Positions 1,250 through 48,250 are shown, counted from the first letter of the stretch. The stretch: DNA of 64,000 nucleotides from an uncultured Gammaproteobacteria bacterium (GCA_964355175.1 CAYHBZ010000002.1:28426-92425), one strand, 5' to 3'. The notes: generated by a model not told the origin, from the sequence alone. Program-made: numbers and translations.

Positions 1250-1846
1250 ATGAAAAAAATTGTAGTGGAAAAAACAGCGGAAGCGAATTTACCAACTAAG
1301 TATGGTGATTTTAAGATTTCTATTTTTAAATCTTCTGTCGATGATCGCCCACAGGTGATTTTGACCAAAGGGGTGATAAAAAAAGAACCGGTTTTAGTAC
1401 GAATACACTCCAAATGTCTTACTGGAGATGTGTTCATTTCTTTGAAGTGTGATTGTGGTCCTCAGTTAAATTTAAGTCTGAAAAAAATTGCCAAAGGTGG
1501 CGGTGTCTTGATTTATCTAAATCAAGAAGGTAGGGATATTGGATTGGAAAATAAAATTAAGGCCTATGCCCTGCAAGATCAAGGACAAGATACTTTTCAA
1601 GCCAACCGTTCGTTGGGTCTGCCGATAGATGGGCGTGATTATGCGATTGCGGTGGCGCTTTTGCGATATTTAAAAATAAATAAAATAAATTTACTTACCA
1701 ATAATCTGGATAAAGTCGGACAGCTGGAACAGTGTGGAATAAAAGTGGTAAAAAGATTGTCTTTGGAAACTAAGCCAAATAAATATAACAAACTTTATCT
1801 TCAAGCCAAAAAGAAAAAGATGGGTCATAAACTAAAGTTGGCTTAA
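1250..1846 (+). CDS. ribA: GTP cyclohydrolase II (monofunctional, no DHBP synthase domain)
   Basis: RIHSKCLTGDVFISLKCDCG zinc-binding motif of GTP cyclohydrolase II. Length 198 aa, so only the GCHII domain. Confidence 0.8.
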   Translation: MKKIVVEKTAEANLPTKYGDFKISIFKSSVDDRPQVILTKGVIKKEPVLVRIHSKCLTGDVFISLKCDCGPQLNLSLKKIAKGGGVLIYLNQEGRDIGLENKIKAYALQDQGQDTFQANRSLGLPIDGRDYAIAVALLRYLKINKINLLTNNLDKVGQLEQCGIKVVKRLSLETKPNKYNKLYLQAKKKKMGHKLKLA

Positions 1847-3002: not shown

Positions 3003-5864
3003 TTATTTTATCTCCACATTTAGTTCCTTGCTTTCCGTCACCCCACCGCTGGTGGTCATTGTGCCTCGCAAAATATATTTTCCAACACCCGGAGAATTCT
3101 TCCAACTAAATTCCAAATTCCCTTGGTCGGTTAGTTCGTCTTCTTTATGGTTGAAGTCAAAAATATTTTTTACCACTTTGCTCGAATTAATGAGCTGTAT
3201 TTTGATATTTTTTATGTCGTCCCAGCGAACCGGTTTTACAGCCATGTTTCTAGGAAAATCAGTTTGATTGATTATTATCTCGGTGCCATCTACCCAAGAA
3301 AATGTCGGTTGATCAAATTCAGTATTGGTATAAAACACAATTTTGGATTCGCCGGCATTGCCCTGATCATCCATAGCCACCACTTTTAGAACATGTTGGT
3401 TGGAATAAAGTTTGGAGAAGTTGAATGAGAAATCAAAAGGAAATTGATCGCTGCTTCCCACGAACTGATCATTAATATAATAATCCACCTTTTTTACTCC
3501 GCGCGGCGCACTGGCCTTTATTTGAATGCTGATTTGTCGTCCGTCAATAGTTTCGTTTGGTTCGGGAGATAAAATTTCAATTGTCGGTATCAGTTCTGGA
3601 TTATAGGTAGCATCATCGTATTGGGTTGGCGGTTCTTCCAAAGTAATTTCGGTGCCAGATGTCTGTAATCTTTTGATCCACGCTTGTAAAGAATTTTCCC
3701 AATTTTGGTATTGAGGATCATCGTTTGGATTGGTTGGTGCCGGTCCACGCGGATCGTTTTTGTTTACATAATGTAAAATATCATGTGTTGGCAAGAAAGT
3801 TCGGGTCACAATTAATCCGGGCGGAGTGCTGGACGTGGCTATCCGTCCGCTTAGAGAATTGATTTGTAATTTTATACCGCCATCCCCTCCGCGCAGTACC
3901 GGCTTGGTGGCATTGTTTGGTGGTGGAGTAGGAAAAGCTTCCACCGGAGTATTTTTGGTAGAGGTAGTCATGAACTGATTCCAGATCAAACCGGCCAAGG
4001 TGTTGCCGCCACCTTTCATAGTGGAAGGAATGGTGTTTCCCACCCAGACACCAGTAACCAGCGATGGGGTGTAGCCTATTGTCCAAGCATCTTTGTAATC
4101 ATTAGTAGTACCGGTTTTGGCAGCCACTGGTCTGTCGCCCAAAGTGAGGGTGCTGCGACGACCAAAAATATAAGCGCGAGATGCGTCATCGGACAATACA
4201 TTGCTGATGGTGGCGGCGATTTCCGGAGTGACAGCCGCCGTACCATCGTTTGGTTTCCATTCGGTCAAAACAGTTCCTTTTGGATCAGTTACTTTTAATA
4301 TACTAACCGGCGTATGATAAACACCGTTGTCAGCCAGAGTGCCATAAGCGTTGGTATGTTCAAGTAAATTTACTTCCGCGCCACCAAGCACCAAGCTCAG
4401 CCCCGGATCACCGGTAAAGGTGGTGTAGCCAAAGCGTTTGGCAAAATCAATGGCATTTTGGGTGCCAACCAGGTATAAAGTTTTTACGGCTGGAATATTG
4501 AGAGATCCTTGTAGAGCTTTGCGGATGGTTACGAGCCCATGTTCTTTATTGTCATAGTTGTGAGGAGTGTAGTTTCCTCCCGCGCGCTGATCGAAATTGG
4601 TGATAGTGTCGTAGATTACGGTCTCAGGTGTAAAGCCTTTTTCAAAAGCGGCAGTGTAAACAAATGGTTTAAAAGATGAACCTGGTTGACGCTTGCCGAG
4701 AATAGCCACATTAAATTGGCCATTTATTTCTTCATTTTCAAAATCACGTGAGCCCACCATTGCTAGTATCTGGGCGGTCTTTGGATCCATCGCCACGAGA
4801 GCGGCGTTGTTAGCATTATATTGTTTGGCAAATTTATCGCCATTTATTTTCACTATTTGTTGAGCGGATTTTTGTTTGTCATAATCAATCGTAGTAATTA
4901 CTTTTAGTCCGCCGCTGTCTACCAATTTTTCACCAAATTGGTCGGCCAAAAGTTGTTTTATATATAACACAAAATGGGGCGCATCCATAATACTGCCATT
5001 TCGATAAATTCTCAGGGCCTCATTTTGACCCTGAGTTTTTTGTTCATCATTTATATACCCCTGTTCAAACATCAATCTGAGCACAGTGTCGCGACGACCG
5101 CGCAGAGAATCAATATTATTGAGATAGCGAGACGGTGCCTGAATCATGGCGGCTAGGGTGGCCGATTCGGCAATGCTCAGATCCGTGGCATCTTTATGAA
5201 AATAATCTTGAGCGGCCGACTGCACACCATAATTGGTAGAGCCCAAAGGAATTTCATTAAGATACATTTTTAAAATATCATCTTTAGAATATTTCTTTTC
5301 CAAACGCAAAGCCAAGATCGCCTCTTTTAATTTTCTAAAATATCCTTGAAACCCGCGGCGTTCATTGCCGACGATAGTATTTTTGATAAGTTGTTGAGTG
5401 ATGGTAGAGGCACCACCACCGCCGGTACGACGACCAATTAAGTTATTTACGCCGGCGCGGGCAATGCTGAGTATACTAATACCATTGTGTTGGTAGAAAT
5501 TTTTGTCTTCTATAGATATTACTGCTTTGCCAATATAAGGAGACATGTGTTCTGCGTCCACCAAAGTTCTTTTTTGGTTGCCGTAAATTTCGTACAGTAC
5601 ATGCTCTCCGGTGCGGTCATATATTTTGGTGCTCTGCGATACTTGGCGATCGTTTAGGTGGTTTGGATCAGGCAGTTCGTTGCTGATCAATAGTATTGCT
5701 ACCGTACCAATAGCAAATAAGGCCAGAGCACCGGTAACACCTAAAATAATTATATTTTTGGCAGGGAGTGTAGGGAATTTTTTGGATTGACGCGGTGCCG
5801 GTTGGTCATCTTCGTAGCCGTGAGTACGGCTGGCACGCTTGATTTTGAAAAAAGGTAAAGGCAT
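3003..5864 (-). CDS. class A penicillin-binding protein (transglycosylase + transpeptidase) with a C-terminal Ig-like extension
   Basis: N-terminal TM helix. GT51 motifs (GGASTITQQLIKN, RKLKEAILA). Transpeptidase SxxK (GSSFKP) and KTGT motifs. About 230 extra C-terminal residues. Confidence 0.85.
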   Translation of the reverse strand: MPLPFFKIKRASRTHGYEDDQPAPRQSKKFPTLPAKNIIILGVTGALALFAIGTVAILLISNELPDPNHLNDRQVSQSTKIYDRTGEHVLYEIYGNQKRTLVDAEHMSPYIGKAVISIEDKNFYQHNGISILSIARAGVNNLIGRRTGGGGASTITQQLIKNTIVGNERRGFQGYFRKLKEAILALRLEKKYSKDDILKMYLNEIPLGSTNYGVQSAAQDYFHKDATDLSIAESATLAAMIQAPSRYLNNIDSLRGRRDTVLRLMFEQGYINDEQKTQGQNEALRIYRNGSIMDAPHFVLYIKQLLADQFGEKLVDSGGLKVITTIDYDKQKSAQQIVKINGDKFAKQYNANNAALVAMDPKTAQILAMVGSRDFENEEINGQFNVAILGKRQPGSSFKPFVYTAAFEKGFTPETVIYDTITNFDQRAGGNYTPHNYDNKEHGLVTIRKALQGSLNIPAVKTLYLVGTQNAIDFAKRFGYTTFTGDPGLSLVLGGAEVNLLEHTNAYGTLADNGVYHTPVSILKVTDPKGTVLTEWKPNDGTAAVTPEIAATISNVLSDDASRAYIFGRRSTLTLGDRPVAAKTGTTNDYKDAWTIGYTPSLVTGVWVGNTIPSTMKGGGNTLAGLIWNQFMTTSTKNTPVEAFPTPPPNNATKPVLRGGDGGIKLQINSLSGRIATSSTPPGLIVTRTFLPTHDILHYVNKNDPRGPAPTNPNDDPQYQNWENSLQAWIKRLQTSGTEITLEEPPTQYDDATYNPELIPTIEILSPEPNETIDGRQISIQIKASAPRGVKKVDYYINDQFVGSSDQFPFDFSFNFSKLYSNQHVLKVVAMDDQGNAGESKIVFYTNTEFDQPTFSWVDGTEIIINQTDFPRNMAVKPVRWDDIKNIKIQLINSSKVVKNIFDFNHKEDELTDQGNLEFSWKNSPGVGKYILRGTMTTSGGVTESKELNVEIK

Positions 5865-46108: not shown

Positions 46109-47182
46109 TTATTCTTCTAAAACAGGTTTCTCTATATAGAGAGGTTCAATTTTTTTCTCGGCACCTACTATTCTCACTACATCTTTATCAATCTTATTAA
46201 ATTCTTTGTAGACAGTGTTGTAGCTATTTACCGTGGTAGATAAATTAGCGCCAAGTTTTTTTAGGTATTCATCATAAGCCAGTAAATGTTTGTTGAGCTC
46301 CTCTACTCTCTGTCGAATTTCTTTGGCCGACTCCTCTATTTGCATAGCGCGCAAGCCTTGAAGCACTGTTTGTAGGTAGGCCAAGAAAGAAGTTGGTGAA
46401 ACAATTACCACGTGTTTTTCTTTAAAAGCGTATTCAATCAGATCTTGAGTGTTGGTTTTGAGCGTGCCGACTTGATTCACCAAGAGATCATAATAAATTC
46501 CTTCGGAAGGTATAAACATGAAGGCGAAGTCCATAGTGCCTTCTTTTGGTTTGATATATTTACTGGTTTCATTGATGCGATTTTTTAGATCCGCTTTAAA
46601 TAGCGCCTCTAGTTCCAATTTTCTTTGTGGATCTTTTTCGCTCACGGCACGGTTGTAATTTTCTAAACTAAACTTGGAGTCAATTGGTATGACTTTCTCT
46701 TTTACAAAAACTACAGCGTCCACGATATCTCCATTTTCAAATTTATATTGCATTTGGTAGCTGCCTGGAGGTAAAACATTTTTTAAAACATTTTCCAGAT
46801 AGTACTCCCCTAGTATGCCACGGTGTTTTGGATTCTGTAAGATATTTTCCAGATCCTGAAGTTGGTCGGCAAATCCCATGATTTGTTTGTTAGTTTCATC
46901 CAGCTTGGTAAGTTTTTCCGTCACTTCGGCAATTATCTTGGCGCTCTGACCAAATTGTCCTTGGATGGCCTGGTGCATGTTGGTCTGATGGACGTTCATT
47001 GCCTGATGATTGTCACCTATTTTCTTTTCCATCTGACGGCCAAGATCCTGAATTTGGCTCTGGAGCAAAACAAACAGGTTTTCATCCCCTTTTGGTTTCT
47101 GTAATTCTTTTAGCTTATTATATAGGAAGAGCAAGGCGGTAAATAAGGCCATTGCGACGATGATTAATATAATATTTGTCAT
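46109..47182 (-). CDS. rmuC: DNA recombination protein RmuC
   Basis: N-terminal TM, long coiled coil, C-terminal RmuC nuclease-like domain. Confidence 0.75.
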   Translation of the reverse strand: MTNIILIIVAMALFTALLFLYNKLKELQKPKGDENLFVLLQSQIQDLGRQMEKKIGDNHQAMNVHQTNMHQAIQGQFGQSAKIIAEVTEKLTKLDETNKQIMGFADQLQDLENILQNPKHRGILGEYYLENVLKNVLPPGSYQMQYKFENGDIVDAVVFVKEKVIPIDSKFSLENYNRAVSEKDPQRKLELEALFKADLKNRINETSKYIKPKEGTMDFAFMFIPSEGIYYDLLVNQVGTLKTNTQDLIEYAFKEKHVVIVSPTSFLAYLQTVLQGLRAMQIEESAKEIRQRVEELNKHLLAYDEYLKKLGANLSTTVNSYNTVYKEFNKIDKDVVRIVGAEKKIEPLYIEKPVLEE

Positions 47183-47281
47183 ATCATTTATTTAGTGGTG
47201 GTATAGTAGCATTATTATAATACTTTGTCATTATTCTTGCCAAAACCCAAAAGGTGCTGTAGAATAAGCCTATTATTTCTC

Positions 47282-47353
47282 GCCCCCATAGTTCAATGGA
47301 TAGAACAGGCCCGTCCTAAGGGCAAAATGTGTGTTCGATTCATGCTGGGGGCA
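47282..47353 (+). tRNA. tRNA-Arg (anticodon CCT)
   Basis: Acceptor GCCCCCA/TGGGGGC. Anticodon loop GTCCTAA. T-loop TTCGATT. No CCA. Confidence 0.7.
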
Positions 47354-47529
47354 CAAAAGTGGTCCCAGCATGAATCGAACAAAGGGGTGGTGGGGAAAGT
47401 ATTTCCCCACATTGCTGAGGAAAGCCCATGAAAACCAGAAGGTTTTCATGAAAGGAGTGCAACGACGCGTGACATTCTGCTGGGGGCACAATTAAGGAGC
47501 GAAGCGAGGGTGATATGGCGTATATAAAT

Positions 47530-47605
47530 GGGCCTGTAGCTCATTTGGTAGAGCGCAGCATTCGCATTGCTGAGGTAAGGGGTTCGATTCCCCTCAGGTC
47601 CACCA
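47530..47605 (+). tRNA. tRNA-Ala (anticodon CGC), CCA encoded
   Basis: GGGCCTG acceptor with G3:U70 identity pair. Anticodon loop TTCGCAT. T-loop GTTCGATTC. CCA present. Confidence 0.85.
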
Positions 47606-47677
47606 ATCAGGATTGGAGAGTCCCGTAGGGTAATGGTAGTTTAAAGGTTTTCTACAAAGACCAATTTGTTTGTAGTG

Positions 47678-47709
47678 AAAATAGGGTCATTAACCCTATT
47701 TTTTGTTTT
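47678..47709 (+). terminator. rho-independent terminator downstream of tRNA-Ala
   Basis: ATAGGGT-catta-ACCCTAT hairpin followed by a T-run. Confidence 0.5.
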
Positions 47710-47745
47710 TGTGGATAAAAAAGGGGATAACTTTGAGTAAAAGTG

Positions 47746-47769
47746 GATTTGTATACACTAGTCTATACA
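47746..47769. repeat. 24-bp near-palindrome TTTGTATACACTAGTCTATACAAA (copy 3)
   Basis: Identical to the 9675-9698 copy. Lies in the long AT-rich region upstream of the O-antigen-ligase-like gene. Confidence 0.8.
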
Positions 47770-48250
47770 AATTTATAATATGTAGTTGATTTATTGATTA
47801 TTTTCAGTGTTTTACGTGAAACATTCGATATCTCTGTAATTATTGTTTGGAAACAGCTAAAAGAGTTATTGGAAATGCTGGGACTGTTATAATTGCTTAA
47901 ATCCATATAATATTCCCTTAAAAAAGTTTTACGTGAAACAATTATTTTTAATGTGTGGAAGAATTATTAACCTATATTAAAGGTGCTAAAATAAAAGATA
48001 ACTATTTGATTATAAAAGCATAAGTAAAGAGTTTAAAAATCATGCCCAGGTTCTAACTAATAAGATCGCTGGATTGTTATTGTGCTCAGTTAGAATTTTA
48101 TAATCATTTTTTCCATTTATTTTAAACAAAATATTTTCTAAATAAAAAGGTATATAAATTTATGTAACTTTTTATTTATTAACATACCAAAATAAGGTCC
48201 AGTATGGTATAATATTAGTATTGAAAATATTTTTAAGAGTATTATTTTTT

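Follow-up and report, generated by a model that had tools for sequence, protein, structure and literature searches.

The locus between tRNA-Arg and tRNA-Ala

The window (the whole stretch of DNA that was analyzed, 64,000 nucleotides) contains two neighbouring tRNA genes on the plus strand, tRNA-Arg(CCT) at 47282-47354, in which CCA is not encoded, and its downstream partner tRNA-Ala(CGC) at 47530-47605. ARAGORN and Rfam agreed on both calls. An RmuC gene on the minus strand (46109-47182) flanks the locus, and the homologues of its product point to Candidatus Magasanikbacteria (Patescibacteria/CPR). The gene order RmuC–tRNA-Arg–tRNA-Ala–TPR protein is kept across related Ca. Magasanikbacteria. 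A promoter-like site on the plus strand (TTGCCA-17-TAGAAT, 47237-47265) lies 5' of tRNA-Arg and is kept in all orthologous loci; the sole terminator-like site that a terminator scan returned at the locus, an intrinsic-terminator-like hairpin with a T run on the plus strand (47677-47703), closes the tRNA operon. Since these two sites flank both tRNAs, tRNA-Arg, the element described below, and tRNA-Ala would belong to one transcription unit.

Between the two genes lies a unit of about 133 nt (47359-47491), whose parts are all given on the plus strand. It begins 4 nt (AAAA) after tRNA-Arg with A' (47359-47381), in which the T-loop and the 3' strands of the T-stem and acceptor of this tRNA are copied in inverted orientation. 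The source of A', and of the direct copy A2 at the other end, is the segment running from the tRNA-Arg T-loop to the 3' end (A1, 47332-47356). As the preliminary description had stated, an 18-nt inverted copy stands 3' of tRNA-Arg: CCCAGCATGAATCGAACA (47364-47381) is the exact reverse complement of 47332-47349, and the match extends to 23 nt at 91% (21/23 nt; 47332-47354 against 47359-47381). The near-invariant core (47382-47424) consists of AAAGGGGTG, hairpin 1, and ATTGCTGAGGAAAG, and its columns are invariant in 13 aligned elements. Both perfect hairpins reported earlier were recovered. Hairpin 1 (47390-47410) pairs GTGGGGAAA with TTTCCCCAC (47390-47398 and 47402-47410) around a 3-nt loop, and hairpin 2 (47427-47450) pairs CATGAAAACC with GGTTTTCATG (47427-47436 and 47441-47450) in a 10-bp stem with a 4-nt loop. 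The family alignment then places a purine-rich AAAGGAG, a mini-hairpin 3 (GTGCAAC, GNA triloop), and a conserved right end, GACGCGTGAC, at 47451-47473. The last part, A2 (47474-47491; ATTC-TGCTGGGGGCACAA), repeats the 3' part of tRNA-Arg in direct orientation; the copied stretch starts near T-loop position 58, ends 2-3 nt past the discriminator, and carries a 1-nt deletion.

The resulting direct repeat, TGCTGGGGGCACAA, measures 14 nt (47343-47356 and 47478-47491), with 121 nt between the two copies; their starts are 135 nt apart, against the 134 bp first given. In the sister strain L001, which is 99% related and has the same insert with about seven differences, the second repeat is ATTCATGCTGGGGGCAC (17 nt). 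Judging from this pair of sequences, the direct repeat was longer originally and the window has lost one A. A base-for-base identical sequence occurs in an independent 463-kb ENA contig, and the window insert is therefore not an assembly artefact. Behind A2, at 47494-47516 on the plus strand, there is a degenerate second right-end module, AAGGAGCGAAGCGAGGGTGATAT, matching about 20/25 positions of the right end of copy L041 (AGGAGCGAAGCGACGACGTGACAT). Strain L001 has it too. This module was probably left by an older insertion at the same tRNA whose left part was lost, which suggests repeated insertion.

Searches for known features inside the insert gave few matches. With Rfam 15 (including tRNA, pseudo-tRNA, ribozyme, and group I intron models), only the two tRNAs passed and the insert remained below every gathering threshold; its best match was Clostridiales-2 (RF02937) with 24.9 bits against a gathering threshold of 58.6. 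The proposed scan for pseudo-tRNAs, run with ARAGORN and the Rfam tRNA model, found none in the insert. The idea that the hairpins form a terminator module was discarded, because no T run follows hairpin 1 or hairpin 2 and the only terminator-like site is the one at 47677-47703. No conserved ORF was found in the element. One small frame is open in the window copy and in copy L030 and is broken in L028, so we treat the element as non-coding.

Other features were observed in the neighbouring intergenic DNA. A second insert of about 58 nt (47608-47665) lies directly 3' of tRNA-Ala(CGC), with 6-nt repeats ACCAAT at 47602-47607 and 47660-47665. Its first bases repeat the tRNA end in inverted form over a short distance (CCAATC-ag-GATTGG). 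L002, L004, L007, L009, and L052 lack this insert, which has AAGGTTTTC..AAAG in common with the main element around hairpin 2 (13/16 positions). It had no match to the covariance model of the element described below, and its structure was not significant (z = -0.87). The palindromic motif GTTT(T/C)NCGTGAAAC has two exact copies in the window, both in one intergenic region (47809-47822 and 47926-47939), and also occurs in the Arg–Ala spacers of L010, L013, L021, and L026; from its sequence it may be a candidate regulator binding site. The palindrome TTTGTATACACTAGTCTATACAAAT (47748-47772) is found downstream of tRNA-Ala in all related genomes, within an otherwise unalignable 1-kb intergenic region, and is adjoined by a perfect DnaA-box sequence, TGTGGATAA (47710-47718). 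An oriC in this region was rejected because DnaA boxes are not enriched in the window; the GC skew shows no switch across the window.

Insertion polymorphism at orthologous loci

The comparison of orthologous loci that the preliminary description had called for revealed clear differences in size, the opposite of the uniform arrangement that would have refuted an insertion. The Arg–Ala spacer is 175 nt in the window. It is 8 nt in L004/L008 (RmuC identity 92%), about 9 nt in L048/L019, 16 nt in L050, 22 nt in L002 (RmuC identity 93%), 44 nt in L007 (RmuC identity 89%), and 40-60 nt in L013, L021, L026, and L009, so that tRNA-Ala lies 8-60 nt from tRNA-Arg in element-free relatives. Full elements were present at this locus in the window, in L001, and in L010 (RmuC identity 83%), which has a homologous insert. 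L052/L053 retain A' and the first 15 nt of the core fused to the A2 end, a remnant that, by its sequence, looks like a microhomology deletion, and the spacers of L002 and L009 open with apparent A' leftovers. Because the orthologous spacers vary in size in this way, the window stretch is an insertion, which some close relatives carry intact, some in a decaying state, and some not at all. The alternative first proposed, a conserved processing module of the tRNA pair, does not agree with its lack in most close relatives.

In L010, A' (GTGACCGCAGTGGGAATCGAAC; 1506-1531, minus strand) fits its own tRNA-Arg in the T-loop only. The rest resembles the end of another tRNA, with T-stem CCCAC and acceptor TGCGGTC; no matching tRNA was found among the loci examined. 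Two short-read Logan contigs stop inside the Arg–Ala locus (L001 and L055; one in tRNA-Ala, one at the end of hairpin 1), and the repeats and palindromes of this locus appear to break assemblies.

A family behind seven tRNA species

We searched metagenome contigs with a 20-mer from the conserved centre of the element (CAAAGGGGTGGTGGGGAAAG) and obtained 21 contigs. Twelve had the full architecture and one was truncated; the others were chance or coding matches. Wherever neighbouring proteins are named, the host is Ca. Magasanikbacteria. The upstream neighbour is always a tRNA in the same orientation, of the species Arg-CCT, Arg-GCG, Lys-CTT, Lys-TTT, Met-CAT, Gly-TCC, or Ser-CGA. A covariance model built on 13 copies gave all of them 95-137 bits, with exactly one copy per locus, and detected no further copy in the 64-kb window.

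Element size across the family is about 105-130 nt plus arms, and the order of the parts is constant: tRNA, spacer, A', core, hairpin 2, purine stretch with hairpin 3, right end, and A2. The spacer after the tRNA measures 0-45 nt and is usually a terminator-like hairpin (A-tract, stem, T-tract); the window lineage and L044 have none. A' copies the T-loop and the 3' strand of the T-stem in inverted orientation and ends in ...GAATCGAAC. The core, of about 45 nt, is near-invariant, reads AAAGGGGTG-GTGGGGAAAGNATTTCCCCAC-ATTGCNGAGGA, and contains hairpin 1. In hairpin 2 the apex AACC-NGAA-GGTT is conserved. After the purine-rich stretch, hairpin 3 is often a GNA-triloop mini-hairpin; its sequence is variable, yet most members have a hairpin there (GCGAAGC, GCGGAGC, GGCCGAAGGCC, CTCGCCTAGGCGAG). 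The right end is GACGACGT(GAC) or GACGACGTTCGC. A2 is a direct copy that starts near T-loop position 58, takes in the 3' strands of the T-stem and acceptor as well as the discriminator, and stops after 2-9 nt of trailer. The direct repeats, which measure 14 nt in the window and 17 nt in L001, are 9-22 nt long in the other members.

Variations on this plan were seen in single copies. The truncated copy, L033, was inspected for a full-length parent element and gave none: the adjoining contig DNA contains neither the remainder of the core nor a second repeat. In L040 (about 1040-1075) an extra G+C-rich hairpin of about 33 nt sits at the apex of hairpin 2, so the apex tolerates cargo. In L038, the element at tRNA-Lys(CTT) is succeeded at about 4425-4520 by three ACGCTNAGCGT hairpins, and after at least two of these comes ..CCAC with an A-rich run, resembling a tRNA 3' end; by their sequence, these hairpins may be remnants of further insertion rounds. 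L028 has the same element as L038 with different DNA downstream of A2.

The arms match the target in each case. A' mirrors the T-loop variant of its own tRNA (TTCGAAT, TTCAATT, TTCGAGC, TTCGACT, TTCGATC, or TTCAAAT), and for tRNA-Arg, A' complements the 3' strand of the T-stem exactly (GCATG) and does not reproduce the wobble-paired 5' strand (GTGTG). A' enters the acceptor strand in L039 and in the tRNA-Arg(CCT) lineage but stops short of it in most copies. Within A2, the T-loop portion is of element type (GTGAC followed by ATTC, or GTTCGC), which places the right junction at about 57/58. Trailer bases are present in A2 and CCA is absent, and A2 was thus copied from DNA, not from mature tRNA. 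For the same reason, arms made from cDNA of mature tRNA were rejected. A primer-binding site was rejected as well, since A' usually misses the acceptor 3' end.

Two pairs of copies were compared closely. The copies at tRNA-Met (L030) and tRNA-Lys-TTT (L039) are identical over about 77 nt of core plus hairpin 2, with tRNA-specific arms; from adjacent NCBI protein accessions, they probably belong to one MAG. L030 and L041 are orthologous, with the same PNP and RNase Y neighbours, and their upstream intergenic DNA is unalignable. Between these two, the tRNA T-stem pair 50:64 changes from G:C to A:T, and both arms follow it, A' with G to A and A2 with C to T; in the 96-nt interior, three positions differ.

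The alignment was also informative on folding. The pairs of hairpin 1 are invariant. Hairpin 2, variable and covarying at its base, has compensatory changes in 6/10 pairs, and 97% of its cells are paired; none of 500 shuffles reached its covariation score, and pairing falls to 37-61% when the partners are slid by 1-3 columns. The tRNA-sense (+) strand folds better than its complement in 12/13 members. Read from the alignment, this covariation shows that the folded single strand matters. The window copy alone is predicted to fold into a four-way junction in which A2 pairs with A' to close the element (z = -5.5 as RNA and -5.95 as DNA). The A':A2 stem, or A':A1, has the form of the duplex target; at T-loop 55-58 it contains a conserved mismatch or bubble. 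In the predicted minimum-energy fold of the whole operon transcript, the 5' acceptor strand of the tRNA pairs with A2 and A1 pairs with A'. The window insert could therefore compete with the folding of tRNA-Arg, according to this model.

These results bear on how the locus was first described, as a litter of tRNA fragments, and the uniform, conserved family behind seven tRNA species refutes that view. The resemblance to a piece of the tRNA-Ala anticodon arm is real: CATTGCTGAGG at 47410 has a counterpart at 47565 in the anticodon and variable region of tRNA-Ala (15 nt, 93%). The piece is part of the family core and also occurs in copies far from any tRNA-Ala, and so it is not local tRNA debris. 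A related explanation is that the whole arrangement arose locally, with no element, from replication template switching or slippage at a highly transcribed tRNA gene. The inverted copy does abut the tRNA (4-nt loop), as fold-back synthesis predicts, and the second small insert after tRNA-Ala also opens with an inverted copy of that tRNA's end. Against this, the interior belongs to a family conserved at many other tRNAs, no pseudo-tRNA was detected in the insert, and chance accounts poorly for the repeats, with about 0.01 inverted copies (at most three mismatches) expected in the window and 0.8 direct repeats at loose stringency. On the alignment we consider local debris already largely refuted and extremely improbable.

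The main reading first given was that of an attL/attR scar, left in tRNA-Arg by a once-large prophage or genomic island that had lost its interior. It is correct that the insertion is lineage-specific and bounded by a repeat of the tRNA 3' end which begins in the T-loop, as with tRNA-integrating elements, and the stretch is missing from orthologous loci. It is not an accidental scar: about a dozen independent copies, at seven tRNA species, form a uniform structured family with the same boundaries, order, and size, and independent deletions would differ. The hairpin covariation points to selection on the small unit itself, there is no integrase remnant nearby, and no phage, plasmid, or viral match was found. 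A decayed island is therefore very unlikely. The suggestion of a miniaturised element came close, as the repeat spans the T-loop to just past the tRNA end, like those of tRNA-integrating elements.

Possible mobility, rival readings, and known systems

Our preferred explanation, in which our confidence is about even, is that 47359-47491 is a non-autonomous mobile mini-element specific for tRNA 3' ends that acts as a folded single strand. The evidence for mobility is the uniform size and boundaries, the presence, absence, and decay among relatives, the second right-end module, and the near-identical interiors at tRNA-Met and tRNA-Lys-TTT. The element would enter at the segment from the T-loop to the 3' end of a tRNA gene, either by a recombinase crossover in the T-loop or by staggered cleavage and subsequent fill-in. 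An intact tRNA would be kept on the left, and the displaced or duplicated 3' segment on the right would give the direct repeat. The active form would be the folded top strand, as single-stranded DNA or as transcript, in which A' would pair with A2, or with the tRNA gene's own A1, to make a stem mimicking the duplex target over a four-way junction. Invariant hairpin 1 and the apex of hairpin 2 would be recognised by a putative trans-acting enzyme.

Two options exist for the matching of the arms. Each lineage could carry its own tRNA segment as a one-tRNA specialist, with interiors homogenised by gene conversion. Alternatively, the arms could be copied from the target at insertion, or A' could serve as a guide. 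We know of no transposition or integration chemistry that gives both inverted and direct target-derived arms. Further points weigh against mobility: near-identical cores at different tRNAs could result from gene conversion instead of transposition, the mirrored T-stem change of L030/L041 fits long-term constraint in place equally well, the 64-kb window has a single copy, and no recombinase gene was found near the copies. We also saw no excision product, and no species supplied an empty site that matched exactly.

Around eight of the copies, the genes out to 4 kb have housekeeping roles (PNP, RNase Y, RNase III, NusB, MurE-like, MgtC, TrmA-like); no integrase, transposase, HUH enzyme, or reverse transcriptase was found within about 4 kb. 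Phage and plasmid collections gave no match to the element. In a viral collection, four of six pattern scans were empty, and the right-end pattern returned five chance matches that the covariance model rejected. No autonomous relative was found in these three collections or near the copies. A literature search on the element, core sequence included, found nothing relevant, and the family of non-coding inserts behind tRNA 3' ends in Candidatus Magasanikbacteria is apparently undescribed.

In the principal rival reading, a tRNA-linked structured RNA (a small-RNA gene or an RNA module) would be kept for a host function, spread by duplication, and homogenised by gene conversion. At the window locus, RNase Z and RNase P would release it from the tRNA-Arg/tRNA-Ala precursor; its 5' arm would be antisense to the T-arm and its 3' arm would mimic the 3' strands of T-stem and acceptor in the neighbouring tRNA, which the RNA might, for instance, sense, sequester, or chaperone. 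Several results agree with this. The 45-nt core is almost invariant even though the surrounding intergenic DNA is unalignable (window against L010, and L030 against L041), on the tRNA-sense strand, which folds better in 12/13 members, hairpin 2 has compensatory as well as G-U changes, the T-stem change at the orthologous L030/L041 is echoed in both arms, and the promoter and terminator sites predict that the window element lies inside a transcription unit. There is also a weak, recurrent similarity to Clostridiales-2. On the other side, the element is dispensable, as it was lost from this locus, or never reached it, in most close relatives, and only remnants survive in several. A terminator-like hairpin precedes most copies, no consistent promoter was found before A', and no Rfam family reached threshold. 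The repeat reaching into the tRNA trailer and the tandem right-end remnant are signatures of insertion. We hold a host RNA of this kind to be possible but on balance doubtful.

The Clostridiales-2 similarity (RF02937, function unknown) arises from the core stretch 47382-47424 and gives 20.7-24.9 bits in four members. Shared features are AAAGGGGUG, a G-rich hairpin, a purine-rich ..AGGA.., and a second hairpin. The element scores far below 58.6, however, and its host belongs to a different phylum. The Clostridiales-2 motif is not known to be linked to tRNA genes.

Returning to the mobile mini-element, close parallels are tRNA-integrating elements and their derivatives without genes, the cis-mobilizable elements (CIMEs). 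The 3' ends of tRNA genes are classic landing sites of integrative elements, and P4-like and similar integrases cross over in the T-loop, leaving a repeat that begins in the T-loop and ends shortly after the tRNA. The element likewise has a repeat that starts in the T-loop and overshoots the tRNA by a little; the tRNA at its left is intact, and its distribution among close relatives is patchy. Like CIMEs, it has no recombinase of its own. As in a tRNA island, a direct repeat of the tRNA 3' end surrounds an insert that is absent from the orthologous site in related genomes, but integrase and cargo are not found between the repeats. The element also differs in having about 120 nt between repeats and one scaffold for seven tRNA species, in the additional inverted copy of the target, and in interior hairpins that covary instead of protein arm sites. 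No related full-size element was found for this family.

The folded recombination sites attC and CTX-phage attP(+) offer another comparison. At about 105-130 nt the element falls in the size range of attC, one strand folds better than the other, and the terminal stem, with ...AAC on the inner left and GTT.../GTG... on the inner right, is broken by a conserved mismatch or bubble and imitates a duplex target. Compared with the R''/R' consensus (RYYYAAC/GTTRRRY), ATCGAAC pairs with GTTCGAT or GTGACAT, so that AAC/GTT is present and the fourth position is off-consensus. Unlike attC and attP(+), the element targets the tRNA T-loop instead of attI or dif, and its outer stem is specific for each target. 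L boxes, the extrahelical-base pattern, a cassette array, and a nearby intI are lacking. Against an integron attC or cassette, there is no L-box stem, only a single copy per locus, and no recombinase gene near.

REPINs and IS200/IS605-derived palindrome-associated elements are mobilised in trans by Y1 HUH enzymes. They resemble the element in being tiny, non-coding, hairpin-based, and strand-dependent, with a mobilising enzyme encoded elsewhere. Those elements, in contrast, make no target duplication, are not tRNA-specific, and occur in tens to hundreds of copies; the hairpins are present here together with a long direct repeat, which is atypical for them, and no TnpA or RAYT gene is linked to the element. 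A MITE fits poorly on two points. The terminal inverted repeat A'/A2 is target-derived and different at every tRNA, not element-borne, and the duplication of 14-22 nt always lies over the tRNA 3' end, compared with the short 2-10 bp expected. As for copy number, the 64-kb window has a single copy, as does each locus, and one MAG probably has at least two.

A bolder explanation is a nucleic-acid-guided homing device, in which a scaffold would carry arms that pair with the two strands of the tRNA gene (A' antisense to the T-loop and T-stem, A2 sense to the T-stem and acceptor) and that are rewritten for each tRNA. We consider it unlikely. In a weaker form, the idea would amount to a new class of RNA that mimics the tRNA T-arm. 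By reasoning, a TnpB-type guide RNA (scaffold plus flanking guide) was discarded, since the intact tRNA copy would be a permanent self-target. If the homing device were true, it would represent a new way of programming insertion specificity with no linked protein gene.

The guest described here is a folded nucleic acid of about 130 nt that stands behind at least seven tRNA genes, with arms matched to each. If the preferred reading of a mobile mini-element is right, it would be, to our knowledge, the smallest tRNA-specific element, and it would offer a simple system for how target-matched arms arise, together with a covariance model to annotate this recurrent element in CPR genomes, whose mobile elements are poorly charted. 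If it is an RNA, it would be a new conserved class of tRNA-linked RNA in organisms with minimal genomes. For annotation, such inserts put repeats and long palindromes at tRNA genes, where they appear to break short-read assemblies.
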